A stretch of 64,000 nt of DNA from Cenarchaeum sp. (GTDB lineage Archaea > Thermoproteota > Nitrososphaeria > Nitrososphaerales > Nitrosopumilaceae), in NCBI GenBank assembly GCA_965212015.1, contig OZ243037.1, positions 864,001-928,000 of the forward strand, written 5' to 3'. The position numbers and the translations under genes are program-made. The notes under the pieces were generated by a model. The model made no database searches. It worked only from the letters and a program-made list of their open reading frames with translations, and was not told the origin of the DNA. Each line of letters opens with the position of its first letter. Positions within the stretch are counted from its first letter, which is position 1. This document shows, piece after piece, positions 11,382 through 57,568 of this stretch.

Positions 11382-12961
<1,580 letters not shown>

Positions 12962-13073
12962 ACCATCAAATGCAATGCGCCATGAAAGTGGTGTATGAAG
13001 GATGTAGCGGATCCCTCCCTTGGAGGATTTGCAATGATCGTCGTGTATAGTCGTGTAATATGTGGCTGAATAT

Positions 13074-16060
<2,987 letters not shown>

Positions 16061-16570
16061 GCTCAGCCACTTACATAGAGACTATACGCGACGATTCATT
16101 TTTTTTAGACCCCCAGCGGACGCTGTACGGATTCGTACCGTGTCGCGCATGATGCAAAGCTTCAACTGCCACAAACCAGATCAAAACCGCATACAATTGC
16201 AGCCGATTTGTTTGCGTGGCAGGAATCAAATGACTATGATAAACCAACACAAAATCTGAGGGTATTGGGTATTTCCCTATCTATCCTGCCACGGCATTAT
16301 ATTGGCGCAGGTCGTATTTTTGCTTTTTGTACAGCCGGATTTGCCGGCCCGGGCACATGCCCCGTCTGGTTCAGGACACGGTCAAACTATGGGGGCTGTC
16401 CTACCCAGGAAAGCACTATAGATTGAGATCTCTTGTAGTGGTTATTTGTGCGCCCGACTGGCGGGAATTGATTCCAAAATTGCATGCCTTGTTGCCAAAA
16501 AAATATCCAGACGCAATGTCTGTGCACGGCTTTCGCGCCAATGCGGCCGCAGTACGAGCGGTTCGAGATG

Positions 16571-28923: not shown

Positions 28924-29214
28924 GTGTGTGCTACGAATCGATGATCAATATAGTTTTCGGCCACACGCTTGTTTTAGATCTCGAACTTTGGATTGAGACT
29001 GTATGTTCTGAGTACTGATGACCTGCCTTCTGAGCTGGCTCAAATAGAGCCAGAACAGAGCAGAAAGGCTGCAAGAATTTCTAGGGATGATCTAATTGAT
29101 TACTATCGTAACCGGTTAGATCCCGTGCCTGTAGATCCAAATATCCCTCTTGAGCCTAACCTGTTACCTACTATCTATAGATATAGTAATATTAGGGTTA
29201 ATACAATAACTCTC

Positions 29215-29340
29215 ATGAATTCCATCAAGTGTAAATGTGGACATGATGTAAATCAACATGGTCCTTTTAATAATGGAAATCACATCAATGCTTGTAAGGA
29301 ATGTGATTGTTCAGGCTATAATCCTTCGGATCTACAATAA
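29215..29340 (+). CDS. 41-aa Cys/His zinc-binding microprotein
   Basis: MNSIKCKCGHDVNQH...ACKECDCSGY. Confidence 0.55.
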   Translation: MNSIKCKCGHDVNQHGPFNNGNHINACKECDCSGYNPSDLQ

Positions 29341-29431
29341 AATAAGGATCTAATAAATATTTAGCCTTAACAAAAAATTTGCGACACATTCTCAAACCAA
29401 AATTTGAGATCAATGATTCAAATAGATTGAA

Positions 29432-29513
29432 AATTGATCATCATCATACAATATAGAATTGATCATCATCATACAATATAGAATTGATCATCATCATACA
29501 ATATAGAATTGAT
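29432..29513. repeat. 25-bp tandem repeat x3.3
   Basis: aattgatcatcatcatacaatatag at 29432, 29457, 29482 and partial at 29507. Confidence 0.9.
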
Positions 29514-29627
29514 ATAACAATGAATAGAGTCAAAATATGATGTAAAACTTATCTTTAATCATAACTTAAAATTCACATTTTAGATCTAGACTGTAAAGTT
29601 TATCAAAATATATCAAATATTTTCAAT

Positions 29628-30320
29628 TCAATCTAATAGATAATGATTTTGTTGCAACCATGTTTTTCTTATCTCATAATCAGGCATTATTCTACCTAGC
29701 AGATTCCAAAATGATTGGTCATGGTTTGGAATTTTAAGATGACATAATTCATGTATGATGACATAATCGATGATTTTCCTTGGTGCACGGATTAGTTTCT
29801 GATTGATTGTAAGTGTATCTGACTTACTGATTCCTCCCCATTTTGTATTTAAGGGTTTTATTAAAATCTCAGATGGGAATAATTTAATTAATTTTGAATA
29901 TTTTTTGATCCATTTTTCAAATAATAAAGTAGCTTTTTGTTTTTCCCAATCTAGATATAATTTGCGTATGTTACTACTTGTTGTATTATCTAAACTAGCA
30001 TTAAATATTCCATTCTTTAATTCAAAATGATTAGATGATGATTTGATAATCTTGAGTGTATACCATTTTCCAAGATATGGAATTTTTGATTTATCAGCAT
30101 ATGTGATTTTAGATGTTGTATAATCTTGAATTTCAAGCTGTTTTTTGAAAATCCATCTTGAATGGCTTTGGATCTCATCATGTATGGTTTTTTGACTTTT
30201 TATATCAGATGCCAGTACTTTAACTCCCGATTTACCGACAAGAATCTCTGTTGTATTTCTTTTACGTAATATTATTCTGTAAGGAATTTTTGTCTTTCCA
30301 AAAATTATATAATTCATCAT
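29628..30320 (-). CDS. YgjP/M48-like (DUF45) metallo-hydrolase associated with type I R-M
   Basis: KWG...IDYVIIHELCHLKIPNHDQSFW; start overlaps the hsdR stop (ATGA). Confidence 0.9.
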   Translation of the reverse strand: MMNYIIFGKTKIPYRIILRKRNTTEILVGKSGVKVLASDIKSQKTIHDEIQSHSRWIFKKQLEIQDYTTSKITYADKSKIPYLGKWYTLKIIKSSSNHFELKNGIFNASLDNTTSSNIRKLYLDWEKQKATLLFEKWIKKYSKLIKLFPSEILIKPLNTKWGGISKSDTLTINQKLIRAPRKIIDYVIIHELCHLKIPNHDQSFWNLLGRIMPDYEIRKTWLQQNHYLLD

Positions 30321-33271
30321 TGATTCGCCTTCATCAATTTTACAATTTCTATGGCAAGTGATTGGGTTTTGTCAAAATCTAAACTTTGTTCACGTAGTAT
30401 ATCTTTGATCTTTGCTCGCATCTCTTTTTGTATATTTTCTTTTTCCGGCCAATTACTTACTTGCAATAGTTCTAAATTCTTGGAGATTGTCATGGTTAAT
30501 TCTTTGGATTTTTCATCATCAAATGCGTTTTGAAGACTGCTATATATGGAGAATTGTATTTTGGTCAACCCTTCATCTGATGCTCGTTTACCTTCAGAAA
30601 ATAATTTTTGTAGCAGTTTCTGTAACTGGTTAAATGATTGTGCATCCTCAAACTTTGTATTTTTTAAATTTTCGATGATCTCTTCTAGTCTTTGTTTTAG
30701 TGATTTGTAATATGCAGGATTTGTTGATTCATTTTTTTCTATTACTTTTCGTGCCTTTTTTATAATTATACTTGATCTAGTCTTTACAGAACCATAGGAT
30801 TTGATCAGTTTGATGAAATTTGTATTATCAATCTTGGTAGGAGGAATGAGTTGAATGGATTCTTCAGCACTAATTACATCTTTGATCAATTTTTTTACTT
30901 TTTCGCCTATCTCTTGCAAATTTAGATTTTCATCATAAAAGGCAGTCCTAGCAGCTGCCCTTGTTTTTGCCAAAAATTTCAAGTCATCTTGATATTTAAG
31001 TGCCTCAGGATCCGGCAGCACTAAATCCATGTATTTAGAAAATTCTTTAAAATCGTGTTCAAATGATTCCCTCGTATCTTCAGGGGTCAGGATTTCGATC
31101 AGGGCATCAAGGTCATTTCTATTCATATTAGTAAAATATGACATTGCTTTATCACACCAAATTTTTAATTTTAAATGTGCATCTTCGAATGTTTTTAAAA
31201 TCTGTTTTATCTCGATATTTGCATCTTCATCTATATCATACATTTGATACGCCTCTGCCAAATTCCCAGAGATTCCCCAAAAATCAACAATCATCCCATG
31301 TGTTTTTTTTACTCCATGTGGACGATTTACCCTAGCTATTGCCTGAAGTAGAGTATGTTCCTTAAGCCCTTGATCAAGATACATTGTCTGTAGAATCGGC
31401 GCATCAAATCCTGTAAGTAGCATATCTACTACAATTAGAATCGACAGGGACTCATCCTTTATTGAAAGCTTGAATTTTTCCACATATTGTTCCTTGACTC
31501 TGTCTGTTAATTCATATTTGTCCCAACCATATTTTTTGTCAGTAGGCATAGATGTCATTATGATTCTAGATTCTGGCGCTTCTAGGTCATCAAGTGCTTT
31601 TTTATATAGGACTGCAGCTCCTCTTGATGGCGCCACAATCATTGCTTTAAGACCATTAGGATAGACATGTTTTTCATAGTGATCCACTATTGCTTCTGCC
31701 ACTCTTTTGATTCTGTTAGGTGCAGAAGCTATAGCAGTCTTGTTCGCATATTTTTTCCTTGAAATTTCACGTGTCTTTTCATCAACATTTTTTGTTATTT
31801 CTGCAAATCTTTTTTCAATGGATTCTCCTTGTACATGCATATCACTGAATCTCCCTTCATAGTAAATTGGAAGAGTAGCACCATCTGCCTCCGATTCTGA
31901 AATTTTATAGGTATCAATATAAGTTCCAAAGCTATCCTGAGTTTTATCATTCTTTATTAAAGGTGTTCCAGTATATGCAAAAAATATGGCATTGGGAAGT
32001 GCCGCACGCATTGTGGCATTTGTGAGACCGTATTGTGATCGATGTCCTTCATCCACCAAAACAAAACAGGATTCATCGGACACAGGATGAGGTTTCTCAT
32101 CTTTAAAGAATGGAAATTTAAATACCGTACTCATTATGGTTTTTCCTCTATTGTTTTCTATCATTTCTTTTAGATTGTCCCGATCTTTAGCTCGAACTGG
32201 GGTTGGAAATCCACATGATTTGAAAGTGTTATGAATTTGTTTATCTAGTTGTTTTCTATCTGTTACGATCAACACTGTGGGATTTTCATATAATCGTTTT
32301 AATTTTAATGCCAACCAAAACATAGTAAGTGATTTTCCAGAGCCTTGAGTATGCCAGATCACACCGCCTCTTTCAACCGGAATTTTTCCTGTATCTATCC
32401 TTCGAATTGTTTTTTGTACAGCTCTGAACTGCTGATATTTAGCAATTTTCTTGGTTTTTTCACCTTCTTCTATTTGGAAAACAGTAAAACTTTTTACCAA
32501 TTCCAATAAGTTTTTTTTTGTAAGCATTCCATCGATTAAGATTTCTTGCTGTCGTGATCTATTCTTTTGTTTGATATTTTCTAACGGATATGAATCTTTC
32601 CATTCTCTGTAGTTGTGAGATGATGCAAAGGTTGGAGCATATCTTGCCTTAAGTCCACATGTTGCAACTAGGATTTGTACATAGTAAAATAGACTCTCAT
32701 ATCCTGTTTTAGGCTGCTGATATCGATACAGATTGTTGTTTATCGCCTCACTAAGTGGATTTGATATATATGGTGATTTGCATTCTATTACCACTAATGG
32801 TATTCCATTAACAAATATTACAATATCTGGAAGTATGTCATTTTTGTACCCTTTGAGGAAGTATTGATTTGTTACAAAAAAGTCATTTTTTTCGATCTTT
32901 TCAAAATCAATAATTTTTACAGTACGTGGCTTGTTGCCATCACCAAGGTTTTGCATTACAGTGATTGGTCGTAATCGGCCTGTAGAGAGCCCTATTATTC
33001 TTGCATGTATTATTTCATTTGCGTCAATCGCAATATTGCTATCAAATTTTTTAAATTCTCTTACAACATCGTCAATTCCCTGATCATCGATCCAGGGATT
33101 TAGACGTAATATTGCCTTCTCAAATCTATCAATTAAGAGGGGCTCTAGATCAGACTTGCGTGTTTTGTCCAATTCTGACCTAGTTTTATATTCAAATCCA
33201 AGCTGTTTTAGCTGCTCTATTGCAGGCATTTCTGATTGTTCCTTTTCAGGACCATGTTCTTGTACACTCAT
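30317..33271 (-). CDS. hsdR: type I restriction enzyme R subunit
   Basis: PDIVIFVNGIPLVVIECK nuclease, HTQGSGKS, DEGHRSQ, YTGTP and MLLTGFDAP helicase motifs. Confidence 0.97.
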   Translation of the reverse strand: MSVQEHGPEKEQSEMPAIEQLKQLGFEYKTRSELDKTRKSDLEPLLIDRFEKAILRLNPWIDDQGIDDVVREFKKFDSNIAIDANEIIHARIIGLSTGRLRPITVMQNLGDGNKPRTVKIIDFEKIEKNDFFVTNQYFLKGYKNDILPDIVIFVNGIPLVVIECKSPYISNPLSEAINNNLYRYQQPKTGYESLFYYVQILVATCGLKARYAPTFASSHNYREWKDSYPLENIKQKNRSRQQEILIDGMLTKKNLLELVKSFTVFQIEEGEKTKKIAKYQQFRAVQKTIRRIDTGKIPVERGGVIWHTQGSGKSLTMFWLALKLKRLYENPTVLIVTDRKQLDKQIHNTFKSCGFPTPVRAKDRDNLKEMIENNRGKTIMSTVFKFPFFKDEKPHPVSDESCFVLVDEGHRSQYGLTNATMRAALPNAIFFAYTGTPLIKNDKTQDSFGTYIDTYKISESEADGATLPIYYEGRFSDMHVQGESIEKRFAEITKNVDEKTREISRKKYANKTAIASAPNRIKRVAEAIVDHYEKHVYPNGLKAMIVAPSRGAAVLYKKALDDLEAPESRIIMTSMPTDKKYGWDKYELTDRVKEQYVEKFKLSIKDESLSILIVVDMLLTGFDAPILQTMYLDQGLKEHTLLQAIARVNRPHGVKKTHGMIVDFWGISGNLAEAYQMYDIDEDANIEIKQILKTFEDAHLKLKIWCDKAMSYFTNMNRNDLDALIEILTPEDTRESFEHDFKEFSKYMDLVLPDPEALKYQDDLKFLAKTRAAARTAFYDENLNLQEIGEKVKKLIKDVISAEESIQLIPPTKIDNTNFIKLIKSYGSVKTRSSIIIKKARKVIEKNESTNPAYYKSLKQRLEEIIENLKNTKFEDAQSFNQLQKLLQKLFSEGKRASDEGLTKIQFSIYSSLQNAFDDEKSKELTMTISKNLELLQVSNWPEKENIQKEMRAKIKDILREQSLDFDKTQSLAIEIVKLMKANQ

Positions 33272-34458
33272 GTCTTTACACGTATCTTCCCAGTTAGAAG
33301 GTTTTGCATAAGTCCTTTTTTTAAACGTTCGAGTTTTTCTTTATATACTTGATTTTTTTGAATGTACGCATCAACTCCTGACAGAATTGATGCAATTTTT
33401 TGTTGTTCTTTAATGTTTTTAGGAACTTTTATTTTAAAAGAATGTAGATGATTTCTATTTAATGTAGGAACACTAGTTCCTGAATTGAATTTTTCGTAAT
33501 TTAAATTTTGAAGTAAATAAAAAACAAATTTTGGAAATGATGAACGAAATTCTTTTACATATAATGACGTATTCAATGGCCAATAATTTTCTACAACATA
33601 ATATGTTTTTCCTAAAGTGCCACTTCGTCCAATTATTACTCCAGGACCATTAGATTTGTATTTATTATGGTATCCAACAACACCATTTGAACCTATTACT
33701 GGAATTTTACCAATTTTACGTTCATGTTTTGGTAAATCATGACCTCTTTGAAGAAAAATTATAGAATCTAACCTAGAAAATTTAATCAATGAATTTTTAA
33801 TTCCTTTTGTGAGCAGCTGCTGCATCAGACCTTTTTTCAGCCTCTCGGTCTTTTCGATTATTCCTTGTGTGGATTCGATCAATGCATCAACATTAGAAAG
33901 AATTGATGCAATTTTTTGTTGTTCTGTAATATTGGGAATCGGAAGAATAATTTTTTTAACACTATTTAAATCTAAATGTAACACTGTGGTTCCAGCACTA
34001 AAAGAAAATGAACTTTTGTGAAAAAATTCACTAGAAAATAAATAAAATAGAAATTTTTTATATATTAATTTGGTGTTTATTTTACAATGAGCTGTATCCA
34101 TAGAATGAAAAACTTTCTTTATATTATGAAAATTTGGTATTATTAATGGAAATCCAATTACATTACCATCACGAGTTACATCAGTGATTGAGATCAGGAT
34201 TTCGTTTGTAGCTATTGAACATTTATTTGTCTTGCCAGTGAAATATATGATACCTTTATCTACAAATCCTCCTAATTTTTGAAAGCAATTGAGATTAATG
34301 AGAATATTGCCAATTTTTTCTGAATTGATTTCTTGGCTGCTGTAGCTTATTCCTCGAATTAATTCCATTAATTGATCGAGTTGAATAGTGTCATATTCCT
34401 CTGGGATTTTAATTTCCAAAAATCGTGGTTTAAGAACTAATTTCTTGAATTTTGCCAT
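33268..34458 (-). CDS. hsdS: type I R-M specificity subunit (two TRDs)
   Basis: Two TRDs, each followed by EQQKIASILS...LKKGLMQxLLT; stop overlaps the hsdR start. Confidence 0.95.
   Translation of the reverse strand: MAKFKKLVLKPRFLEIKIPEEYDTIQLDQLMELIRGISYSSQEINSEKIGNILINLNCFQKLGGFVDKGIIYFTGKTNKCSIATNEILISITDVTRDGNVIGFPLIIPNFHNIKKVFHSMDTAHCKINTKLIYKKFLFYLFSSEFFHKSSFSFSAGTTVLHLDLNSVKKIILPIPNITEQQKIASILSNVDALIESTQGIIEKTERLKKGLMQQLLTKGIKNSLIKFSRLDSIIFLQRGHDLPKHERKIGKIPVIGSNGVVGYHNKYKSNGPGVIIGRSGTLGKTYYVVENYWPLNTSLYVKEFRSSFPKFVFYLLQNLNYEKFNSGTSVPTLNRNHLHSFKIKVPKNIKEQQKIASILSGVDAYIQKNQVYKEKLERLKKGLMQNLLTGKIRVKT
33368..33402 (-). repeat. 35-bp inverted repeat, copy A (putative inversion site)
   Basis: Exact reverse complement of 36530-36564. 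Confidence 0.9.
33883..33918 (-). repeat. degenerate third copy (B) of the repeat, in the central conserved region of hsdS
   Basis: 20 bp identical to copies A and C, plus the GTTGATGCA arm; different 6-bp spacer (TTTCTA). Confidence 0.75.
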
Positions 34459-34486
34459 ATTTCCACCTTGTAGTCAGCACAACCCC

Positions 34487-34493
34487 TATAAAT
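34487..34493. promoter_or_regulatory. putative bidirectional TATA box for hsdM (+) and hsdS (-)
   Basis: TATAAAT lies 22 bp before the hsdM ATG (34515); the reverse TTTATA lies 28 bp before the hsdS ATG (34458). Confidence 0.55.
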
Positions 34494-34514
34494 CAGTTAA
34501 AAATATAATGGTTG

Positions 34515-36005
34515 ATGGCCGAAAAGCTGACCTTTAATAAGCTAAAAAATCACTATTGGGACGCGTCTGATATCTTAAGAGGCGGTCTTGATGCGAGTGA
34601 ATATCGTCAGCCAATAATGACACTATTATTTCTAAAAAGATTAAATGATCAATTTCAGGAAAAAGCTGAAAAGCTGGAAAAAGAAGGTAAACCAAAAAAA
34701 ATAGCTTATGAAGATACTGACTACCACACATTTTTTGTGCCAAAAGCATCAAGATGGAATGTATTATCAAAGGCTTTTGAAAATATTGGTGAAAAAATAG
34801 ACAAAGCTTCTGTTGCATTAGAGCGCGCCAATCATTCACAGCTTGAAGGCGTTTTAACCAATATATCATATAATGATAAGAAAAAATATTCTGATGAAGA
34901 TCTTTTAAAACTTGTAAGTCATTTCAGTAAATACAGATTAAGAAATTCAGATATTGAAAATGAAGATATTTTTGGTCAGGCTTATGAATATCTCTTAGAG
35001 CAATTTGCTGATTCAGCTGGGAAAAAAGCTGGTGAATTTTTTACCCCACGAGAAGTGGTAGAATTATTGGTAAAGATTTTGGCACCTACAGAAAAAATGT
35101 CGATTTGTGATCCTACATGTGGTTCAGGTGGGATGTTAATCTGGTCTAGGCAATATGTACAAGAACACAAAGGAAATCCAAAAAATCTTTCATTGTATGG
35201 ACAAGAGAGAAATTTTGGAAATTATGGGATGTGTAAAATGAATATGATCCTGCACGGTATTGAAAATTTTAAAATTAAACAAGGAAATACCTTATCAAAT
35301 CCACTTTTTGTAAAAGGTGGAAAATTACAAGAATTTGACAGAGTTGTAGCTAATTTTCCTTTTAGTATGGATTGGAATAATACACAAGCTGCACAAGATA
35401 GATATAATAGATTTGAATTTGGAATTCCTCCATCTAAAGGAAAAGCAGATTTTGCATTCATTCAACACATGTATTCATCACTTAACAAGAAAGGTAAAGC
35501 CACAATTGTCTGCTCACAAGGTATTTTATTTAGAGGAAATATAGAAGGTAAGATTCGTGAAAATTTTATTAAAAATGATATAATTGAAGCAATAATTGCA
35601 TTACCGGCTAATTTGTTTTTTGGGACAGGAATTCCAGCATGTGTTTTAGTTCTAAATAAAGCAAAACCTGAGAAAAGAAAAAACAAGATTTTATTCATTT
35701 ATGCTGCAAAAGATTTTCTTGATTTAAAAAAACGTGATATTCTTAGAGATGAAGATATTAAAAAGATAATTTCATCATATGAAAAATTCAAGGATATAGA
35801 AAAATATTGCCATATCGCTGATTTAGATGAAATAAAAGAAAATGAATTTAATCTAAATGTGCCAAGATATGTGGATATTTCTGAGCCAGAAGAACAAATT
35901 GATGTCCAGGATGCATATAATGAATTAAAAAAATCATTTAAAGAACAAAATATACTTAAAAAATCTATAGAGGTAGATCTAAAGGAATTGAATATTAAAC
36001 TTTGA
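34515..36005 (+). CDS. hsdM: type I R-M N6-adenine methyltransferase subunit
   Basis: GEFFTPREVV, DPTCGSGG, VANFPF and LPANLFFGTGIP motifs. Confidence 0.97.
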   Translation: MAEKLTFNKLKNHYWDASDILRGGLDASEYRQPIMTLLFLKRLNDQFQEKAEKLEKEGKPKKIAYEDTDYHTFFVPKASRWNVLSKAFENIGEKIDKASVALERANHSQLEGVLTNISYNDKKKYSDEDLLKLVSHFSKYRLRNSDIENEDIFGQAYEYLLEQFADSAGKKAGEFFTPREVVELLVKILAPTEKMSICDPTCGSGGMLIWSRQYVQEHKGNPKNLSLYGQERNFGNYGMCKMNMILHGIENFKIKQGNTLSNPLFVKGGKLQEFDRVVANFPFSMDWNNTQAAQDRYNRFEFGIPPSKGKADFAFIQHMYSSLNKKGKATIVCSQGILFRGNIEGKIRENFIKNDIIEAIIALPANLFFGTGIPACVLVLNKAKPEKRKNKILFIYAAKDFLDLKKRDILRDEDIKKIISSYEKFKDIEKYCHIADLDEIKENEFNLNVPRYVDISEPEEQIDVQDAYNELKKSFKEQNILKKSIEVDLKELNIKL

Positions 36006-36682
36006 ATGATATTTTAGAACCTAAAGCAAAATATAAGAAAGTACAAAACTTTTTTAAAAAATATTTTATTATACCAATTGATTGGGAATATCCAAAATTT
36101 GCTTCAGTAATATATGTAAATCCAAAAACTAAAATATTTTCAAAAACTGCACCATATGTTCCAATGGATGCTGTAAACACTAATTGTAGAATGGTAGATT
36201 ATTATGAGAATAGGAATGTATCAGATCATTCAAATTTATCAAAATTTATAGAACATGATATATTATTTGCTAGAATTACTCCTAGTACTGAAAATGGAAA
36301 AACTGCTTTCATTGAGAATTTTAAACATGTTGGTATTGCATCATCTGAATTAACTATTTTACGACCTACAAAAAAAATTATTCCACAATATTTATATTAT
36401 TACATAAAATCACACAGGATCAGATCATTTGCTATTTCACAAATGCTGGGCACCACAAATCGCCAGAGAGTTCCAGAATATGTTTTTGAAAAAGATCTGA
36501 ATTTTGAATTGCCATCTATCAAAGAACAGCAAAAAATTGCATCAATTCTGTCAGGAGTTGATGCATATAAAAAAATTATATATATCATAATATTGAATAT
36601 TTTATATATAAAATTAGCAATATATTTGATAATGTTCACTGCTGATGTATTTAGATTTGGATCTAATCAAATACATTATTAA
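36002..36682 (+). CDS. hsdS: half (single-TRD) HsdS cassette with non-HsdS tail
   Basis: One TRD (DILFARITPSTENGK...GTTNRQRV) plus EQQKIASILSGVDAY, then abrupt loss of HsdS similarity; TTG start overlaps the hsdM stop. Confidence 0.85.
   Translation: MNDILEPKAKYKKVQNFFKKYFIIPIDWEYPKFASVIYVNPKTKIFSKTAPYVPMDAVNTNCRMVDYYENRNVSDHSNLSKFIEHDILFARITPSTENGKTAFIENFKHVGIASSELTILRPTKKIIPQYLYYYIKSHRIRSFAISQMLGTTNRQRVPEYVFEKDLNFELPSIKEQQKIASILSGVDAYKKIIYIIILNILYIKLAIYLIMFTADVFRFGSNQIHY
36530..36564 (+). repeat. 35-bp inverted repeat, copy C (putative inversion site)
   Basis: caaaaaattgcatcaattctgtcaggagttgatgc, the reverse complement of 33368-33402. Confidence 0.9.
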
Positions 36683-36750
36683 ATCTACTTACAAAAAACA
36701 CCATATTCATAAACACATATGTAAAAATAGTTATCATACAAGCAACATAC

Positions 36751-37662
36751 ATGATAATAGCCAAGCAGAGAAGCACCAAATTATTTGAGGAATCCATAAA
36801 ATCAAAATATACAAAAAGAAACTGCAATAATAATCTAAGACAATTTCAGAAATTCGTCATCAGATATACATCAAAAGATCTGTCAGATATCAATGTTGAA
36901 AATCTACAGAATTTACTGGAGGACTATATCATCGAGCTAAAACATACTTCACATCCAAACTCCATACCGTCAAAATTCCAGGGAATAAAGCATTTTTGTG
37001 TAATGAACCGAATCAATCTCAACTGGGACATCATACACAAGATGTTCCCCCAGAAACAAAAAACACAAAATTTGAGATCCTATACCTCAAAAGAGGTCAA
37101 AAGACTATTAGTCGGCACAAAAAGCGTCCGAAATCAAGCCTTGGTTCATTTTCTAGCATCAACCGGCGCAAGAATCGGCGTATTTGACCACGAATTATTA
37201 ATCAAACATATGAAAAGGATGCCCAGCAAATGTTGTGCAGTCAAACTCTACGCCGGAGACATGGAAGAATATTGGTCATTTCTCACTCCTCAGGCAACGA
37301 AGATACTGGATTTGTATCACGAGCAACGTAAGTTAGGCGGAGAATCATTATGTGATGAAACACCCATTTTTGCGACAAGCTTCGGGCAACTTGGATGGAA
37401 TGGTGCAAGATCTGTCGTATATCGAGCCATATCAAAAAGTGGCATTGACAGAAACAAGCGGAATAACCGTTATGACGTACAGGCAGACCATGGCCTCAGA
37501 AAAAGATTCAACACCATACTAAAATTGGACAATTCTATAAACTATAACATTGCAGAAAAGCTTATGGGCCACAAGAACGGTCTAGATGGAATATACCTGA
37601 CACCCACAATTGACGAATTATTTGCAGAATTCAAAATAGTCGCACACAAATTGGAGATCTGA
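36751..37662 (+). CDS. tyrosine recombinase/integrase
   Basis: Catalytic motifs ASTGARIG (R), HGLRKRF (HxxR), LMGH and GIY (Y). Confidence 0.92.
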   Translation: MIIAKQRSTKLFEESIKSKYTKRNCNNNLRQFQKFVIRYTSKDLSDINVENLQNLLEDYIIELKHTSHPNSIPSKFQGIKHFCVMNRINLNWDIIHKMFPQKQKTQNLRSYTSKEVKRLLVGTKSVRNQALVHFLASTGARIGVFDHELLIKHMKRMPSKCCAVKLYAGDMEEYWSFLTPQATKILDLYHEQRKLGGESLCDETPIFATSFGQLGWNGARSVVYRAISKSGIDRNKRNNRYDVQADHGLRKRFNTILKLDNSINYNIAEKLMGHKNGLDGIYLTPTIDELFAEFKIVAHKLEI

Positions 37663-37831
37663 GTGATTATTCTTGTGTGCCCAAATGGATAATAATCCCA
37701 AATGGCGATTAGTCAGCAAATAGCATCAAATCTCCTACAATGATCGGCAATTCCAACAATCAATCTAACTTATCAATGAAAGACAGCGATAGCTTTATAG
37801 AATCCTCACCGCTAGTATCATAATTCCAATC

Positions 37832-40135
37832 TTGACAATTCCAGTATGGCAGATGATTCGTGAGGCAATAGATGCCCTTGGAGGTACTGCAACCAATAGT
37901 AAAATTCGGGATTACATAAATTCCAAGTATAAAGGAGTCAATCAAGGAACTATTAATTGCCAAATTATCTCTTGTACCGTAAACAGGGCATCCAGGGTAC
38001 GTTTTCCAAAAAATTTCAAACCCAGAAAAGCAGACACAGAATATGATTTTTTGTATTCTGTAGGGAGAAGCAAAGTGATTCTTTACAAGCCAGAGATACA
38101 TGGAGATTACGAGATAGCAATACATGATGGAAAACCAAAAGTTTTGACCAACGGAGGAATCATTGATAACAGCATAGAATGCGCTCTCTTAGAATTTATT
38201 CAAAACGAGATGGAAATGGATACAAATTATCAACCCATAATCATAAAGACTTTGTTGGAAAGTGGGAATGAAAACAGATTTGAGTCCGACAAGGAATTAA
38301 TCCAAGAAAAACTTCAGGAATTAAACTTTGAGAAGCAATTTGATTTTGATAATATGTTGGAATCCATAAGAAAAGATCTAAATGGATTTGTTACCTTTGG
38401 TAACAGAATTATAGGTTTACATTTTGATCAATTTTCATCCAAAGACATACCGGAATGTTTGAAAGCATGTGGACAAAAAATCGCACAATGGCATATGGAT
38501 AATTATCAAATAGACATGTGGTCAATGCTGCCTGGCAGAACAAGGGAAAATTATCCATTTTTGGATGAATTTTTACAAACCAATTCAATTGGTGTCGGAT
38601 GGAATCGAATCAAGGATATTTCTGATCTCACAAAAAACCAAATACTCAAAGAGTTTAATAGACGATATCCTGAGGAAGACAGTGCAAGCTTTAGCGATTT
38701 TACAAGAATAGACAAAAAAGATCTGATTGTACTGACCAGAGGACAAAAGGAGATTGTAGACTATGGGATTGTCACCGGTGATTACCACTATGAATCCAAA
38801 AGCCCCTCATATACACACAGAAAGAAGATTGTCTGGCTAAAACGAGGTCCTGTCTTGCCAAAAGAGTTACCAAACCCCACTTTGGAAGGATTTATGCGCA
38901 CATGCATTAAAGTCTTAAAGCGGAGAGAAGAGCTGATTCAGGTATTGCTTGAAAAACACACAGTTAATAATATAGTTCCTGCCGATAATTATACAGTGGA
39001 GCAAAAGCTAGAAAAAATACTAGATCTGAAAAAACAGTTGATTCTGTACGGCCCTCCTGGAACTGGAAAAACATACCATGCCATGCGTCTTGCACAGCAT
39101 TTAATCAGAAATAACTCTTCGAGACAGGCTCTGACTTTTAGATCCGCCACAATACAGGTTCTCAAAGAAACTGGTAAACCTATGCATTACAAAGACATTT
39201 ATCAAAAAATCAAAGATCAGAATTTGATTCAAAGTGCAGGTCAGACGCCAAGAGATACCATGCGAGCAATAATATACAGGGATATAAAACACAAGGGATC
39301 AGATTCAATCTTTAAAAAAACTGACAACGGAACATATGAATTAAATCAAGATTCACAAGAATATGAAATCAAATTCAGTGATGAAATTCCAGATGATCAG
39401 CCAAAATTCATTCGTAGCGTGACATTTCACCAATCATATTCCTACGAGGATTTTATCGAGGGCATAAGGCCTACTGCAATCAATAATCAGATATCCTACG
39501 ATCTAGAAGACGGTATTTTCAAACAGATTTCCGAGGAAGCTCGGGCCGATCCCTTGAACAAATATGTGCTGGTAATAGACGAAATCAATAGAGGAAACAT
39601 CTCCAAGATCTTCGGCGAGCTGATTACATCGATTGAAAAGGACAAACGGGAAAACCACACACTACAACTGGCCTACTCGAAGGAAGAATTTACAGTCCCA
39701 AAAAACCTATTCATCATAGGTACGATGAACACTGCAGATCGCAGCCTGATTCAAATTGACACAGCACTGAGGCGACGATTCTCATTTCATGAATTAATGC
39801 CAGAACCTGAATTATTGAGTCAAATAATCGAGGGGATTCCTGTGAGGGATATTTTGACCATGCTCAATCAGCGAATCAAACAGGAGGGACTACGTGAGCG
39901 GCAAATAGGTCATTCATATTTCATGAGCATATCAGATCTAGATGGACTACAGTTTACCTTTGCCCACGACATTGTGCCACTGCTCCAGGATTATTTCTTT
40001 GATGACTATAAAAAACTGGAAAATGACATTCTAAGCAGTGATTTTGTTGATTCCGACAATATGAAAATCAAAACGGACTGGCATGATGATCCGCAAAAAT
40101 TCCTAGAAATTCTAAAAAATATTCTCCAACAATGA
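37832..40135 (+). CDS. mcrB: McrB-family GTPase with multiple DNA-reader domains
   Basis: GPPGTGKT, TFHQSYSYEDFIEG, IDEINRGN and MNTADRS motifs. Confidence 0.93.
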   Translation: MTIPVWQMIREAIDALGGTATNSKIRDYINSKYKGVNQGTINCQIISCTVNRASRVRFPKNFKPRKADTEYDFLYSVGRSKVILYKPEIHGDYEIAIHDGKPKVLTNGGIIDNSIECALLEFIQNEMEMDTNYQPIIIKTLLESGNENRFESDKELIQEKLQELNFEKQFDFDNMLESIRKDLNGFVTFGNRIIGLHFDQFSSKDIPECLKACGQKIAQWHMDNYQIDMWSMLPGRTRENYPFLDEFLQTNSIGVGWNRIKDISDLTKNQILKEFNRRYPEEDSASFSDFTRIDKKDLIVLTRGQKEIVDYGIVTGDYHYESKSPSYTHRKKIVWLKRGPVLPKELPNPTLEGFMRTCIKVLKRREELIQVLLEKHTVNNIVPADNYTVEQKLEKILDLKKQLILYGPPGTGKTYHAMRLAQHLIRNNSSRQALTFRSATIQVLKETGKPMHYKDIYQKIKDQNLIQSAGQTPRDTMRAIIYRDIKHKGSDSIFKKTDNGTYELNQDSQEYEIKFSDEIPDDQPKFIRSVTFHQSYSYEDFIEGIRPTAINNQISYDLEDGIFKQISEEARADPLNKYVLVIDEINRGNISKIFGELITSIEKDKRENHTLQLAYSKEEFTVPKNLFIIGTMNTADRSLIQIDTALRRRFSFHELMPEPELLSQIIEGIPVRDILTMLNQRIKQEGLRERQIGHSYFMSISDLDGLQFTFAHDIVPLLQDYFFDDYKKLENDILSSDFVDSDNMKIKTDWHDDPQKFLEILKNILQQ

Positions 40136-41403
40136 CTGTTATCACTTTAAAAGAATACGAAACATTCCCATCTAATCAAGGAATATCTGATCCAGTGTCT
40201 TTAAAACATATTCGCGGATTGAAGCTTGAGGAACAAGATAAAAAATTAAAAAAAGAACTACAAAAGAATATACTTTCCATCAATGTCGATCCTTTTCAGG
40301 AAGGATTATTGCAGTTTAAGGCATATAGCCACATAGGTGTGGCACAATTTACAAATTTCTCCATCTCTATAACACCTAAATTCTCAGAAATTGGAAAATT
40401 GATTGAACTGATTGACTATGTCTATGATCTTGATCTTGAAATATTCCCAGAAAGTGAATCCAAATTTGAAGGAGAAAGACACATGATATCGGAGATTATC
40501 ATAACCACATTCGTAAAGAAATGCCAAAAGCTGATCCGGCAAGGACTCTTCAAATCATATAATAATCACGAGGATGATCTACCGTTTCTGCGAGGAAAAC
40601 TGCTTGTATCACAGCAAATACGTAATCAGGCCAATACTAAGCTCCAATTTTCATGTAAATATGATGAATTCGAATATAATAATCTGGACAATCAGATCAT
40701 TTTATACTGTTTGAGACGGATCTATTATCTGACCATAAATGAGAAAAGAAAAAAAGAAATCAGAATATTGATTCAAGAATTTTCAGATCTAGTCGATGAT
40801 ATTGGAATTTCATCAGATGACTTTGCTAAAATCAATTACAATCAAATGAATAGCCACTATAAAAAAATCCATGAATTATGTCGTCTGATCATAGGAAATA
40901 TTCAAATTACTAATTTTTACAAACAGAAATTACGCTTTATCAATTCATTTTTTATAGACATGAATATTGTATTTGAAAAATTCATCTTCAAGCTATTTGC
41001 AGAATTTTATCCATTGCATGCCAAAGATCAAGAGAGTGATATTGCTTGGAAGACGGAGAATGAAGGAAAGACTATCCAATCTATTACAGATATTTTAATT
41101 TTTGAAAAGGACCAAAATACCGTACATACTATAATAGATACAAAATATAAAACTGATCTTACAAATGCCGATCGATATCAATTAGAGCATTATATACACG
41201 ATCATAAGAAAACAGAAGCATATGTAATATTGCCCGAATTTAAAGATGCAAAATATAACAGCTATATTGCAACAAGACAGGATATTCAAATCAAAGTCAG
41301 ACATGTCAATATAGACAAAGTATTAGAATATATCAATCTCAAAGATCCAAGATCGAAAAAAGACAAAATCAAGGAATTATTGATAGAAGTTATTCCACTG
41401 TAG
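40132..41403 (+). CDS. mcrC: McrC-family nuclease subunit
   Basis: Coupled to mcrB; RGKL, FIDMNIVFEKF, TDILI...IIDTKYK and DRYQL motifs. Confidence 0.92.
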   Translation: MTVITLKEYETFPSNQGISDPVSLKHIRGLKLEEQDKKLKKELQKNILSINVDPFQEGLLQFKAYSHIGVAQFTNFSISITPKFSEIGKLIELIDYVYDLDLEIFPESESKFEGERHMISEIIITTFVKKCQKLIRQGLFKSYNNHEDDLPFLRGKLLVSQQIRNQANTKLQFSCKYDEFEYNNLDNQIILYCLRRIYYLTINEKRKKEIRILIQEFSDLVDDIGISSDDFAKINYNQMNSHYKKIHELCRLIIGNIQITNFYKQKLRFINSFFIDMNIVFEKFIFKLFAEFYPLHAKDQESDIAWKTENEGKTIQSITDILIFEKDQNTVHTIIDTKYKTDLTNADRYQLEHYIHDHKKTEAYVILPEFKDAKYNSYIATRQDIQIKVRHVNIDKVLEYINLKDPRSKKDKIKELLIEVIPL

Positions 41404-42070
41404 AATTCTGCATATCAGATTAAGATCATTCAAAGAACAGATGACCGAAAATTCAACCAAATATCGCAATAGATCGGATAAACAGTGGATTCCTGCCAGT
41501 ATGGCATTTCATTATCCCAACAATGACTTGTCCTCGGGTTTGGGATTTCCTGCCATGTATTCCTTGAAAAGATCGAGCCATCATTTTTTCAGATCAAAGC
41601 GGATGTGCGATCTGAATCAAATTCTTTAATTTGTTTGTTGATAAATTTTTCCACCCATGTGTGATCGGTTTTGTTCTCTTTTTTCATAAGCCTCTGGATT
41701 TTTCTCCAAATGGACCATGATGATCCTGTCCATCCCCAGTATATAATCTCAGGTCTGCCACTCATCAGGTTTTGTGTGGGTCACGAATATTCGCTAGTAC
41801 GCCCAAAAGGCTGTTTTTCGTGATTTTGAGCCAAATCCTCGAAAACACCCACCTGCCCACCAGAGCACAGAATAAGTAGGTTCAAAAGGAATATTTGGCA
41901 CTGTAAGCGTGGAATCTAGCCGTTTATGCCTCCAGCAACCACAATATTTTTATTATGAATGTGTGTATTATAGTCATGGTGAGAATGGATTTGGGCGGCG
42001 GCGGAGTTTCTTAACATAATCGGATATCATTATAACCACCTCTTAAAATAGCCCAACATGTACTGTAAAT

Positions 42071-43276
42071 GTGTTGTCTGAACTCCTTTCTACATTTCGT
42101 ACTCTAATTGTGTGCACTCTAATAATACTTGCAAGTGGACTCGTACTAACGTTCTATTCCCATATGCAAGAAAGCAAAGATTTCTATACCGATCTAGCAC
42201 ATTCAGTTGGACTTACGCTAATATCTGCAAGTGTGGTAGGTGTTGTAGCCGAAGTTTTTATCATGTCGTTATTTACAAAAAAAGTGTTAAAACTGGAGGA
42301 ATCTTTTCTTAACAGAGTCATTCCATCAATAATTAACACAACGCATGAATGGATAATTAGTAAAAGTAAAACTATACCGATAGATAAAACTGCATTGTAT
42401 AATCTCATCCGTATTGGTGTATTGCAATGGTTTATGAAAGAAAATTTTGAAAAGATAGGAATATCATCAAATAAAATAGCAGAATTATACCAAGATCTTC
42501 AATTATCTGAATTCAAAGAACCGATAATAATAGATTTTTCAACCACACTAAGATATGAGGGAAAAATTAATGAAGAGATATCCGGCAGGAAAGGATTGAT
42601 TGATTTACATACTCAGACACAATATACGGCATTCAATTCTTCTAATTCAGAAACTCGATATGTGAATACCAATGGTACTATATTACTACATGCTTTTGAC
42701 ATATTTGGAATTTTTCCAAAAAATGAAAAGGAAAAACAGGAATTTGTTAATAGTTTAAAACTCAAATTGAGCATTACAATAGATGATGTTAAGATAGAAT
42801 ACGAGACAATTCCAATATATCTAGATTTGAAAGATATATCAAGATTGGAAGAAAAAAAACCATCCGAAATTATTCAGATCATAGAGAACAAATTAGATAC
42901 AAAAATAAAAGATAATACAACTTATTTATTCTATAGTTTTAGAGGTAATGAACTAGATGATATCAAACGATTCATCTATTCAGCATTTTGTACATATACA
43001 ATAAAACCTCAAGAACGTATATTGGTTTCATATGATATTCATGAATCCTTCGCCGAGAACGATTATCTCTTTCACACCATGAAGAGTATTACTAAAGGTG
43101 TTAGTGTAAATTTGATTGGATTTGAAGATAGATTTGACACTACAATTCTAAAATATTTCCTAAATGACAAAGAAGATACTATAAAACAAACAACTAATAT
43201 CCTTACAACTTCCTCATTAATGCTTCCTAAAAGCATCATAATTATTTCTTGGCAAAAGAAACTGGAATCTTTGTAA
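42071..43276 (+). CDS. orphan protein with two N-terminal TM helices
   Basis: 401-aa AT-rich ORF; two hydrophobic segments followed by a soluble domain. Confidence 0.75.
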   Translation: MLSELLSTFRTLIVCTLIILASGLVLTFYSHMQESKDFYTDLAHSVGLTLISASVVGVVAEVFIMSLFTKKVLKLEESFLNRVIPSIINTTHEWIISKSKTIPIDKTALYNLIRIGVLQWFMKENFEKIGISSNKIAELYQDLQLSEFKEPIIIDFSTTLRYEGKINEEISGRKGLIDLHTQTQYTAFNSSNSETRYVNTNGTILLHAFDIFGIFPKNEKEKQEFVNSLKLKLSITIDDVKIEYETIPIYLDLKDISRLEEKKPSEIIQIIENKLDTKIKDNTTYLFYSFRGNELDDIKRFIYSAFCTYTIKPQERILVSYDIHESFAENDYLFHTMKSITKGVSVNLIGFEDRFDTTILKYFLNDKEDTIKQTTNILTTSSLMLPKSIIIISWQKKLESL

Positions 43277-43468
43277 AGGATATGGAATATTAGAATCTAT
43301 ATGTATTGCTTTTGTCATTTAGTCAAATATATATCAGTATCAATGATTTATCAAACCTCGTTATATGAACAGACATTTACATACATCGATAAAAAATATG
43401 ATTAAAATATGCACGTTAATACATCAATATCCATCACACAGGTATCGCAGACAAGTACAATAATCAAT

Positions 43469-44890
43469 TCATGCAGTAGGGTCCAACAGCCGTCCCATGA
43501 ACAGTATCATGCCGCTCTCATCATCCTGTATTATGAACAAAAACGGGTGATTCGCAGTAAAGTCCGGGGGCACAGACGTTACGGACGTTATCGTGGTTAC
43601 CGCAGCAGCTTCCGTACCCTCCTCGTTTACATCAACGAACGCGTCCTGGGTTGCCTTGCCCACATACAGGTTTCTTATGTCAGTCGTGTCTGCAATTGAC
43701 AAAAGATTCGCATAATATTCATCAAAGACATCAGTCATTCCAAGATTTTTCAGGAATTCGCCGAGATTATATTTTGTCTCCATGGTAAACTTTGGCATGC
43801 TTACGGCCAATTCGGCATCAGACATGTTCTGGTTCCACTGCGATATCATCTCTGAAGATATGGACTCCTCAAGTGCGGCAATACCGTCCCGATCACTTGG
43901 AAGAGCCACCAGCATGGAGAGTCTGTCCCCCTTGTACGGCAGCTTTAGCACCTGCACACCATCATGCCGAGTGTGATTGAATATTCCCGTAACATGCATA
44001 AAATCCGCATTCACGCTTTCCGCGCCGCTTGTCCAAAAGCCGGCCTGTTGCGTGGCCTCTGTAGGAAACTGCGTCACCCATGTCCCCTTGAAGTATATTG
44101 CATTTGTGATTACCATGGCGGTAAGATGATTCACATCTTCGGAGCCGAGTACCGTCTTTATCTTTTGGTTGGTGTTATCAGATGCCCATGTGTTGATCTT
44201 TTTTACGCCATCATCCATGAAATCCACCGACTCTACGCTAGAAAGATACGTTCCGCGCGCGACATCAAGGTACGACTCGTACGGTGAAAACCAGTCTGCA
44301 AGCCATAACGCGTTTGCCATGGCCAGTGTCGCATGCGGGTCGTCCCGGTTGAGGGATTCCATGGCACGCGCCGTGTGATTGTGGCGCACATCGGCATCAG
44401 ATTCAAAGCCAAACACGTCCTGCATCTGCTGTGCAGTATTTCCCCTTGCCCCCTCGTACAGCACGGAAAATGCCACATACATTCCAGAAGGTGAAAAGAA
44501 CAGATTGGCATCGTTATCAGATATCTGCCTGTAAAAATCCACTGCAAAAATATTGTTTGCAGTTGTAATATTTTGCGGGATTGTAAAGTTTGCCTGTGGA
44601 TTGTCTTTTGGAATCGTGGAATGATCCTGTGGGCCTGGCACACCGTCAATTACATCTGCCAAATCCTGCAAAACAATCTCCCATCCGCGCGATTCCAGTT
44701 TCTTTGCCGTATTCTCGTACACGCAGGCAGGTTTTCCGGACTGTGACTGCACCAGTGTTTTGTCGGCACTGCATTGGATCTCATTTAACGGGGTGCCGTT
44801 TTCTAATTGTTGTAATGGAGTGGATTCTGCAAACACGGGAGTCAAAACCACGATTGACAGCAGTGCCAATACGCATGCCAGATACATCAC
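43469..44890 (-). CDS. secreted serpin with thaumarchaeal N-terminal Cys domain
   Basis: NLFFSP, NAIYFKGTW, EEGTEAAA hinge, NHPFLFII and LFMGR motifs; signal peptide. Confidence 0.95.
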   Translation of the reverse strand: MMYLACVLALLSIVVLTPVFAESTPLQQLENGTPLNEIQCSADKTLVQSQSGKPACVYENTAKKLESRGWEIVLQDLADVIDGVPGPQDHSTIPKDNPQANFTIPQNITTANNIFAVDFYRQISDNDANLFFSPSGMYVAFSVLYEGARGNTAQQMQDVFGFESDADVRHNHTARAMESLNRDDPHATLAMANALWLADWFSPYESYLDVARGTYLSSVESVDFMDDGVKKINTWASDNTNQKIKTVLGSEDVNHLTAMVITNAIYFKGTWVTQFPTEATQQAGFWTSGAESVNADFMHVTGIFNHTRHDGVQVLKLPYKGDRLSMLVALPSDRDGIAALEESISSEMISQWNQNMSDAELAVSMPKFTMETKYNLGEFLKNLGMTDVFDEYYANLLSIADTTDIRNLYVGKATQDAFVDVNEEGTEAAAVTTITSVTSVPPDFTANHPFLFIIQDDESGMILFMGRLLDPTA

Positions 44891-56505: not shown

Positions 56506-57568
56506 ATGAAGCTTGCAGGCGCGATTGCATCGCACAGGCCCGTGCCCCACGGGGGGCCGTTCTCAGTCAGGAGGCCGGATGCGGCAATACTGGACTTTAG
56601 CTCAAGTGTCTCGCCTGCCGGCGCGCCGCCGCTGGTAAAAAAATACCTGAGACGGCAGCTCGACGTGATCGACGTGTATCCCGACCCGGATTCTGTCAGC
56701 CTCAAAAAGAGCCTCAGCTGGTACACCGGCCTTGGCAGCTCGCAGATAACGGCAGGCAACGGCGCAACTGAGATAATCTACAACTTTGGGCGCGCGTTTC
56801 TCTCAAAAAACACGCGTGTCCTGATTGCCGTCCCCGCCTTTGGCGAGTACGAGGCCGCCGCAAGGCTGCAGGGCAGCAGGATCTCCTTTTTCAAAACGAT
56901 GAATATTGGTGATGATATCGCAGAGTTTTCAAGGCGCATCCCGAAAAACGGATGCGTCTTTGTGTGCAATCCAAACAACCCCACCGGCGCGCTGGTCTCA
57001 AAAAACGACATGTCATATATGATAGAGTCTGCCAGGAAAAAATCCGCACTTGCGTTTGTTGACGAGTGCTTTATAGAGCTGGTGCCGGATGCAGACGAGT
57101 CAGTGGCCGGACTGGTAAAAAGATACGACAATCTCTTGGTGCTGCGCTCGCTTACAAAGTCCTTCGGGCTGGCAGGCGCCCGCATAGGGTACGCGCTGGG
57201 ATCAAGGGGCATAATCGGCACGCTGGAGAGGATAAAGATTCCCTGGAACGTCTCGGGGCTCGCCCAAAAGGCGGCAGGCGCCGCAATATGCCACTCGTTT
57301 CACCTCAAAAAGGCAAAAAGAATAATCAAAAAAGAGTCGCAGTTTCTAAGAAAAGAGATATCCGGAATTGACCCTCGATGGCGCGGCCAACTTTATCCTG
57401 GTGAGGACCAGGCTAAAGCCGGGCACCGTAAAAAGCAGGCTGCTAAGGCGCGGCATACTGGTGCGCGACTGTAGCTCCTTTAGGGGGCTTGCGGGAAACC
57501 ACATACGAATCGCAGTGAGGACCAGGCAGGAGAACAGGAGGCTCATCAGGGCCATGAAAAAGATATGA
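56506..57568 (+). CDS. cobD: L-threonine-O-3-phosphate decarboxylase (CobD/HisC-like), frameshifted near 57368
   Basis: CNPNNPTG, VDECF and RSLTKSFGLAGARIGY; C-terminal ANFILVR...HIRIAVR in another frame. Confidence 0.85.

Follow-up and report, generated by a model that had tools for sequence, protein, structure and literature searches.

A candidate Xer-type recombination site within the hsdS genes of a predicted invertible Type I restriction-modification locus in Nitrosopumilaceae

Introduction

Does a 28-bp near-palindrome lying within a partial hsdS gene serve as the core site of a site-specific recombinase, or does it follow from the peptide that it encodes? This question is raised by a Type I restriction-modification (R-M) locus in a 64,000-nucleotide stretch of DNA from Cenarchaeum sp. 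(Nitrosopumilaceae; GenBank assembly GCA_965212015.1, contig OZ243037.1, positions 864,001 to 928,000 of the forward strand), which is referred to below as the window and whose own positions are used throughout. Phase-variable Type I R-M systems ('epigenetic invertons') are well described in bacteria (PMC7672463, PMC7394358, PMC4948785). Known examples include the SpnD39III or cod locus of Streptococcus pneumoniae with its recombinase PsrA (CreX), and six invertase clades were distinguished by Huang et al. 2020 (PMC7672463). In host-associated bacteria, specificity switching by inversion reshapes the methylome and phage defence; if the switch predicted here is true, the archaeal cell would change which DNA sequences its restriction system recognises.

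The analyses described below indicate that the 28-bp sequence is probably the core recombination site of the adjacent Xer-like recombinase, embedded in the codons of the peptide IASILSGVDA, and that recombination between two copies with matching centres (A and C) would invert the segment between them. This reading is supported by comparative sequence evidence; the inversion itself is predicted.

Layout of the locus and the three sites

The genes hsdS and hsdR are transcribed in one direction and hsdM, a half gene with a junk tail (hsdS') and the gene for an Xer-like tyrosine recombinase in the other, in the order hsdR, hsdS, hsdM, hsdS', recombinase. The hsdR, hsdM and hsdS genes are all complete, with Pfam matches for each. 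The features on which the argument depends are as follows.

30317..33271, minus strand: hsdR, restriction subunit, 984 amino acids (aa) (Pfam HSDR_N, SWI2_SNF2, T1R_D3-like, T1RH-like_C)
33268..34458, minus strand: full-length hsdS, 396 aa (Pfam Methylase_S in two stretches, E 1.6e-30)
33367..33394, minus strand: site A, C-terminal class, centre TGTCAG (28 bp, 11-6-11; one mismatch to C)
33395..36537, no strand: predicted invertible segment between A and C (from repeat geometry; the simulated inversion keeps all reading frames)
33883..33910, minus strand: site B, class of the central conserved region, centre TTTCTA (28 bp; same-class partner absent from the locus)
34459..34511, no strand: intergenic region of 53 bp between the divergent hsdS and hsdM starts, the presumed promoter region
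34512..36005, plus strand: hsdM, methyltransferase subunit, 497 aa (Pfam N6_Mtase, E 2.1e-111, and HsdM_N)
36002..36682, plus strand: hsdS', half gene of 226 codons (Pfam Methylase_S, E 1.1e-8; its start overlaps the hsdM stop)
36538..36565, plus strand: site C, inverted partner of A, centre TGTCAG (28 bp, 11-6-11)
36751..37662, plus strand: Xer-like tyrosine recombinase, presumed invertase, 303 aa (Pfam Phage_integrase, E 5.6e-4; NCBIfam XerA_Arch, E 1.5e-12, below cut-off)

The full-length hsdS comprises, in order, the N-terminus, a first target recognition domain (TRD1), a central conserved region, a second such domain (TRD2) and a C-terminal conserved region. The half gene hsdS' is a partial second hsdS, inverted relative to hsdS and carrying a different domain, TRD'; it consists of the N-terminus, TRD', site C and, after SGVDAY, a tail that resembles no conserved region. 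Beyond the conserved motif TRD' is unlike TRD1 and TRD2, and it is 60% identical to TRD1 of the nearest relative, locus L081. The recombinase gene starts 69 bp downstream of the end of hsdS'. The predicted invertible segment contains TRD2, site B, TRD1, the intergenic region, hsdM, and the N-terminus and TRD' of hsdS'; it is in the intergenic region that the promoters are presumed to be, and they would move along with the segment.

Site C reads TGCATCAATTC TGTCAG GAGTTGATGCA on the plus strand. Its arms are complementary at 10 of 11 positions, the sole mismatch being T9 against G3', and its in-frame product within the hsdS' open reading frame is ASILSGVDA; these letters are exactly those claimed in a first-pass annotation of this DNA, which had proposed a dif-like 11-6-11 core at this place. 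Site A, located in the C-terminal conserved region of hsdS (...EQQKIASILSGVDAYIQKNQ...LLTGKIRVKT), is the reverse complement of site C save for the last base (G, not A); 27 of 28 bases match and the centre is TGTCAG in both, as the annotation had also stated. In the hsdS translation site A codes for IASILSGVDA, followed by YIQKNQ.... Site B, located in the central conserved region of hsdS (...EQQKIASILSNVDALIESTQ...), reads TGCATCAATTC TTTCTA ATGTTGATGCA on the minus strand, and the claim that it keeps most of the arms around a different spacer was found to be accurate, the left arm matching that of site C at 11/11 and the right arm at 9/11 positions. Sites A and C belong to the two arms of a 50-nt inverted repeat (33365-33414 and 36518-36567) whose complementarity is 94% and whose exact core spans 35 nt, and B and C are 84% complementary across 50 nt with an exact core of 20 nt. 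No copy of the site beyond A, B and C was found in the whole 1.76-Mb genome.

Comparison of recombinase-linked and recombinase-free hsdS loci

Sites of this kind occur in two HsdS families. In family 1, the HsdM proteins are 53-79% identical to that of the window and the sites code for IASILSGVDA; in family 2, HsdM is about 26% identical to that of the window and the sites, TGAATCAATCT TCNCNC AGATTGAYGCA, code for KIESIFxQIDA. The arm consensus TG[C/A]RTCAAT and TTGAYGCA is common to both families.

HsdM was searched for in 400 genomes of the family, and with this genome added 34 of 401 matched at E <= 1e-80. Twenty-eight regions with an HsdM at least 53% identical were compared, a locus being counted as linked when a recombinase at least 50% identical was present within the fetched DNA. 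The family-1 comparison comprised 12 linked loci with 38 sites and 16 recombinase-free loci, 15 of which had a site (22 sites in all). The first-pass annotation had named, as the result that would tell against it, a palindrome equally frequent in hsdS genes with no recombinase nearby. The palindrome score, out of 11, was 7-10 at the linked sites (mean 8.47) and 3-7 at the free sites (mean 5.23), with no overlap of the per-locus means, and family 2 repeats the contrast. On this check the annotation was borne out: the recombinase-free homologues lack the palindrome.

The annotation had also suggested an examination of synonymous codons, and the codon choices at the site do differ between linked and free hsdS genes. 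Serine is encoded by TCA at 38/38 linked and 13/22 free sites (background use 0.34), valine by GTT at 36/38 and 8/22 (background use 0.28), and isoleucine by ATA at 0/38 and 6/22 (background use 0.36). The first alanine codon is GCA or GCG at 37 of the 38 linked sites and in 3 of 14 alanine codons at free sites, and an alanine follows the aspartate in every linked sequence (38/38) and in no free one (0/22). Because the motif filter passes over the free sites that are least alike, IAFILSNIEN of L081 being one, the contrast is conservative.

On the HsdM tree, linked loci are mixed with free ones, with seven changes of state, at least six of them forced; four of the rows labelled free are short contigs and may be mislabelled. 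The sister of the window on this tree, L081, has an HsdM 79% identical to that of the window and is recombinase-free and without the palindrome. A genome-wide search of the 16 genomes with free family-1 loci found no recombinase more than 51% identical in any of them. In family 2, the free loci had palindrome scores of 2-3 (KIEELF...) or 6, and the free locus L119, where TCC, ATA and ATC-GAC codons spell the same peptide, KIESIFTQID, scores 6.

Two loci outside this grouping carry palindromic sites. L090, in genome G306, has no recombinase nearby; the only close recombinase of that genome is about 13 kb from its family-2 HsdM and about 430 kb away from L090, which suggests that this recombinase acts on L090 in trans. 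L116 is on a 9.5-kb contig, and a 64%-identical recombinase is present on another contig of the same genome.

Homology boundary and the central six nucleotides

Eight expressed sites of the C-terminal class were compared with their junk-tailed inverted partners. Upstream of the 28-mer, identity between partners was 0.38 at -30 to -16 and 0.80 at -15 to -1; the left arm, centre and right arm had values of 0.95, 0.98 and 0.94, and identity fell to 0.25 at +1 to +15 downstream. In all eight pairs the outer edge of the right arm is the end of homology. An exchange in the centre would always leave the right arm attached to the junk tail, and conservation of that arm in the junk-tailed copies would therefore not come from protein selection. 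The inverted arms, each of about 11 bp, and the asymmetric centre of 6-8 bp between them are conserved here as DNA, as in an Xer-type core.

A larger set of 35 inverted partner pairs (17 of family 1 and 18 of family 2) was used for the centre. The central 6 nt are identical in 34/35 of these pairs, and partner mismatches occur at 27 of 770 arm positions versus 1 of 210 centre positions (Fisher p 0.017). The reverse is found for direct pairs within one gene, in which the centre of the central-region site differs from that of the C-terminal site in 24/24 cases, by 2-5 nt. In L006, L010, L026, L027 and L090 both classes code for ILSGV, and the only differences are synonymous, CTT TCR versus CTG TCR; by hand count, the rare leucine codon CTG (background use 0.12) is present in 21 of 22 C-terminal-class sites. 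The block that is always identical between partners is no longer than 8 nt, being bounded by mismatches at arm position 10 (L098) and right-arm position 2 (L090). An overlap region of no more than 8 nt is usual for tyrosine recombinases. The comparative data provide a candidate recombinase site at base resolution and a simple candidate rule for partners, identical centres.

The first-pass annotation had held that A x C is the licensed pair and that the changed spacer of B protects against the A x B deletion of TRD2. The centres of the inverted and direct pairs agree with A x C being licensed and A x B and B x C being blocked; a spacer altered for protection was not retained. In L096 the identical TTTCTA site type is present on both strands, that is, as a central-class site with an inverted partner. 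Because this class has its own inverted partners in relatives, site B is better read as an orphan of a second class, that of the central conserved region, than as a site altered for protection.

An upstream position of the crossover was also considered. The stretch GAACAnCAAAAAATTGCATCAATTCT is present in A, B and C with at most one change, and exchange there would also allow B x C and yield a third specificity, TRD'+TRD2. Simulated B x C inversion indeed gives an in-frame 393-codon chimera in a canonical hsdM-hsdS-hsdR operon, which is the gene order of the nearest relative, L081, and the assembled sequencing contigs described below break at B (33896-33901) as well, without a 31-nt exact repeat there. 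The comparative data point to the 28-mer instead: the 15 nt upstream of partner sites in relatives are 0.80-0.83 identical versus 0.94-1.00 inside the 28-mer, the two site classes keep different centres in all 24 direct pairs, and C resembles A, and not B, in its C-terminal-class centre and its SGVDAY codons. Exchange in the upstream stretch is accordingly regarded as very unlikely.

The recombinase and its relatives

The Pfam Phage_integrase match of the recombinase is weak (E 5.6e-4), and a search of the PDB with the single sequence gave two chance-level matches only. A profile of 16 relatives matched the archaeal XerA structures 5hxy (E 4.7e-9) and 4a8e. The closest NCBIfam families all score far under their curated cut-offs, with 47.6 bits versus 220 for XerA_Arch, 31.2 versus 335 for XerC and 28.6 versus 330 for XerD. 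Across the 16 aligned sequences, from which L028 was omitted on account of an internal stop, the catalytic residues R141, R250, H274 and Y282 are invariant and H247 is at least 90% conserved. By these comparisons the protein is Xer-like, yet it is not XerA, since its scores are far below the family cut-offs. The layout of dif is 11-6-11. The first-pass description of the site as dif-style is in keeping with an Xer-like enzyme next to it. Elsewhere in the genome there are two further, longer genes for tyrosine recombinases (1562154-1562870 and 652908-653675), which are 28% and 25% identical to the island recombinase and whose stop-to-stop frames are 436 and 426 codons.

A survey that took one genome for each prokaryotic species identified 41 recombinase relatives, with 28-70% identity. 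All except one are labelled Nitrosopumilaceae or other Nitrososphaerota (40/41); the exception, L023, is a 3-kb contig in a metagenome-assembled genome labelled Hyphomicrobiaceae. This contig has a family-2 hsdS fragment and a 59%-identical recombinase, and its label is probably a binning error. Sites of the hsdS type were present near the recombinase in 24/41 loci. Among the 17 loci without such sites, five are no longer than 5 kb and six are the most distant relatives (28-45% identity), L034 being in both groups.

Every hsdS-linked recombinase is inside one supported clade of 25, with the distant relatives outside. Within the tree, members linked to family 1 and to family 2 are interleaved, the family-1 label requiring seven changes, at least five of them forced, and the recombinases L018_F1 and L017_F2 are sisters with a support of 100. 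We tentatively propose, as a reading slightly less likely than not, that one lineage of Xer-like invertases of ammonia-oxidising archaea may read a single 28-bp grammar of arm, centre and arm in two HsdS families. The 6-bp centres would then serve as orthogonal address labels, partly written in synonymous codons (CTT versus CTG for the same leucine), which could permit parallel inversions without gene deletion, action in trans (as in G306) and a toggle between two-domain and dimerising half S subunits. Nitrosopumilaceae are ammonia oxidisers abundant worldwide in the sea and in association with sponges, and a whole clade of such predicted switches in them would bear on their arms race with viruses.

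Predicted consequences of inversion

In the proposed mechanism, two recombinase monomers would bind the two inverted arms (consensus TGCRTCAAYYC, inward on each side), and strand exchange would take place within the asymmetric central 6-8 bp, which would have to match between partners. Since A and C share their centre and are inverted relative to each other, they would be the permitted pair, and their recombination would flip 33395-36537. Site B is of the second class, has a different centre and is partnerless in the locus, and for these reasons it is expected to recombine with neither A nor C; exchange with A would delete TRD2.

The present state has a two-domain HsdS (TRD1+TRD2) with a good C-terminal helix, followed by hsdR. 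The flipped state would be a co-directional operon of hsdM, a half hsdS with TRD' and the good helix, and hsdR. In the simulated A x C inversion all frames were kept: an open 221-codon half hsdS, composed of the N-terminus, TRD' and the good C-terminal helix, came to lie between hsdM and hsdR with the three genes co-directional, and the two-domain gene acquired the junk tail. L090 has this alternative layout: beside hsdR it has an intact 224-aa half hsdS with a good tail, and its two-domain gene (446 aa) ends in a junk tail. Both layouts occur across different genomes, that of the window and that of L090.

Truncated HsdS half subunits are reported to work as dimers with symmetric targets. The half S subunit of the flipped state might likewise act as a homodimer and would then recognise a different, symmetric target sequence. 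The L090 half HsdS is predicted to form a homodimer via its C-terminal helix (residues 175-224), with a score of 0.78 versus 0.28 for the best of three controls; the mark for a homodimer was attained by 21/30 solved pairs and 0/23 single chains. The L090 runs had 100% contact agreement and pLDDT (predicted local distance difference test) values of at least 88, and the pass may reflect likeness to solved HsdS folds.

Points against a recombination core, and sequencing evidence

Several observations weigh against the interpretation of the 28-mer as a recombination core. A lone 10/11 palindrome is within chance: the window has two 11-6-11 sites of at least 10/11 (the second, at 57391, is unrelated), and 30 block shuffles of the window had a mean of 0.47 and a maximum of 2. 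The peptide I-A-S-I-L-x-G-V-D-A alone fixes 6/11 arm pairs, and four of the 11 hinge on synonymous codon choice. Arm positions 4 and 8', which are third codon bases (of the first alanine and of the aspartate), showed no clear covariation; the pairs GCA/GAT, GCA/GAC, GCG/GAC and GCG/GAT were counted by hand at about 10, 11, 9 and 3. The conserved regions of linked hsdS genes may share ancestry as one module travelling with the recombinase, and for this reason the contrast between linked and free loci could be in part shared ancestry, with p values that overstate the support. The family-2 locus L120 scores 9 in a genome (G099) without a close recombinase, an exception that is unexplained. Among partner pairs, L027 has a one-base difference in the centre, and the L031 partner retains the left arm and centre with a diverged right arm; homology-bounded gene conversion could also keep a sharp boundary that already existed. 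Finally, the listed contigs of sequencing run X1 (31000-39000 examined) break at A, B and C and include no inverted junction.

The first two of these points could be taken to mean that the palindrome is a by-product of coding an HsdS motif in AT-rich codon usage, that homologous recombination occurs anywhere in the 35-50-nt repeats, and that the recombinase is a passenger of the island. The motif TCAAT...ATTGA is indeed present in some recombinase-free genes (L083, L086), and recombination at pneumococcal spnIII is reportedly independent of known site-specific recombinases (PMC6620402). Such a by-product is, however, difficult to reconcile with the recombinase-free homologues that have the same or a similar peptide, use other codons and lack the palindrome, or with the right arm being kept in junk-tailed copies, where nothing useful is encoded. 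It would also leave the recombinase clade standing beside such sites in 24/41 loci, and whole-repeat homologous recombination or gene conversion would not leave mismatches in the arms and not in the centre. What exceeds chance, as judged from sequence comparison, is the presence of the site in all three repeat copies together with its behaviour in relatives. We consider the by-product explanation quite improbable and a recombination core the better account.

The sequencing data were assembled Logan contigs of two runs from one study, and contigs drop rare variants. Run X1 contains 0.98 of the sampled words, with a word depth of about 600-700 at the locus. That the contigs end at A and C is consistent with a 31-mer graph interrupted by the 35-nt exact repeat, and the absence of an inverted junction from these contigs is evidence neither way. 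As a separate observation, the X1 contigs also break at B, where there is no exact repeat of at least 31 nt, and a single depth-2 contig connects 36701 with 33896 through one additional base; the likely cause is a second allele or strain in the sample, or an artefact of the graph. Metagenome scans with an exact 40-nt stretch from the end of TRD' and with the TRD' protein gave 0 matches and 0 relatives, respectively.

The lack of an inverted junction at such a depth could also mean that the site is genuine and the switch is frozen in this genome, hsdS' being the decaying remnant of a past rearrangement on an acquired island. A and C differ at 3/50 positions, among them 33367/36565 and 33403/36529, and the hsdS' tail has decayed. 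The island is foreign: the guanine-plus-cytosine (GC) content of about 29000-44000 of the window is 0.27-0.40 versus 0.51 for the genome (a single contig), and neither the recombinase nor this HsdM had a match in the four same-genus genomes searched, from which low GC and missing genes the locus is assigned to a foreign island. A frozen switch is nevertheless unlikely, given that the recombinase frame is intact with all catalytic residues present, that the 28-bp sites of A and C are matched at 27/28 positions with identical centres, that the TRD' frame is open and the inversion product in frame, and that rare variants are invisible in contigs. A functional core with A x C inversion accordingly remains the preferred interpretation.

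Relation to known systems

The locus is most likely an archaeal hsdS inverton of the Type I R-M kind known from bacteria, judged from its gene content and repeats. A complete hsdRMS is accompanied by an inverted partial hsdS with another TRD, by short inverted repeats in the conserved regions of hsdS and by a tyrosine recombinase at the locus, as in the bacterial systems (PMC7672463); a trans-acting invertase, as suggested here for G306, has a counterpart there in HvsR. Unlike the bacterial invertons, the host is archaeal with kinship to Nitrosopumilaceae, the segment includes hsdM and the divergent promoter region, and the predicted switch exchanges a two-domain S subunit for one with a single domain instead of swapping TRDs.

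For archaea, hsdS inversion is known from the literature covered only as database counts for Euryarchaeota: the phylum tables of PMC7672463 (Tables 1-2) give 4 and 11 loci for this phylum and have no row for Thaumarchaeota/Nitrososphaerota. Archaea were not scanned in a large survey (PMC9881135), and archaeal invertons have been called minimally investigated (PMC10028968). None of the 15 papers listed in a literature search on hsdS inversion and the methylome in Nitrosopumilus names the organism; the supplementary tables of PMC7672463 and PMC7394358 may list related archaeal loci. A word search of the in vitro study of PsrA for core, spacer, palindrome and minimal gave no match.

The site resembles those of Xer/dif systems (XerA, XerC/D) in its 28 bp, inverted 11-bp arms and about 6 asymmetric bases, and the recombinase has the conserved catalytic R, H-x-x-R, H and Y. 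Unlike them, it is located in protein-coding DNA, exists in several heterospecific versions and would serve inversion, not chromosome dimer resolution. Spacer variants of loxP and FRT (lox511, lox2272, FRT3/F5) have the same arms with other centres and recombine only with their own kind. The comparative pattern here (34/35 and 24/24) suggests the same centre rule; unlike the engineered variants, the centres here appear to be natural and in part lie in synonymous codons. If the rule is true, synonymous codons would here conceal heterospecific recombination sites of natural origin.

In the hsd loci of Mycoplasma pulmonis, vip sites are in the centre of hsdS and sip sites near its 3' end, both kinds being served by HvsR. 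The arrangement here is similar, with two site classes, in the central and C-terminal conserved regions of hsdS, and one recombinase that may serve several loci; the organism and the recombinase lineage are different. HvsR of M. pulmonis acts in trans (PMC7672463).

Other features of the locus and its relatives

A further gene belongs to the same transcription unit as hsdS and hsdR, of which it is the last gene.

29628..30320, minus strand: YgjP-like metallopeptidase gene (Pfam PF01863, E 2.9e-47)

The same gene is also located after hsdR in relatives. The recombinase is followed by an McrBC-like pair, which is on the low-GC island as well, a 767-aa protein with AAA_5, HARE-HTH and DUF7669 (37832-40135) and an McrC homologue (40132-41403). 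ARAGORN found no tRNA gene in the spacer of about 150 nt between the archaeal small-subunit and large-subunit rRNA genes of the window (11449-12919 and 13071-16065) or elsewhere in the window.

Four junk tails in relatives share a stretch right after the site (...AATTRTATACAATTCATA-like; L090 7383, L036 7048, L096 2362 and L012 6680), and the tail of hsdS' in the window is without it. The shared stretch hints at a common module flank or a further functional element.

At L030 (4445-9975), a 56%-identical relative of the recombinase has a 1157-aa Eco57I/MmeI-like methylase-endonuclease gene on one side and, on the other, an inverted partial copy of that gene, 269 aa long. The gene and the copy share inverted repeats of 100-214 nt, with no 28-bp core of the hsdS type, and the arrangement is suggestive of an invertible cassette for the specificity of a Type IIG/IIL enzyme. 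At the contig end of L008 (9702-9729), by another relative of the recombinase, there is a site with 11/11 palindromic arms, TGCGTCAACTC TTTCCG GAGTTGACGCA.

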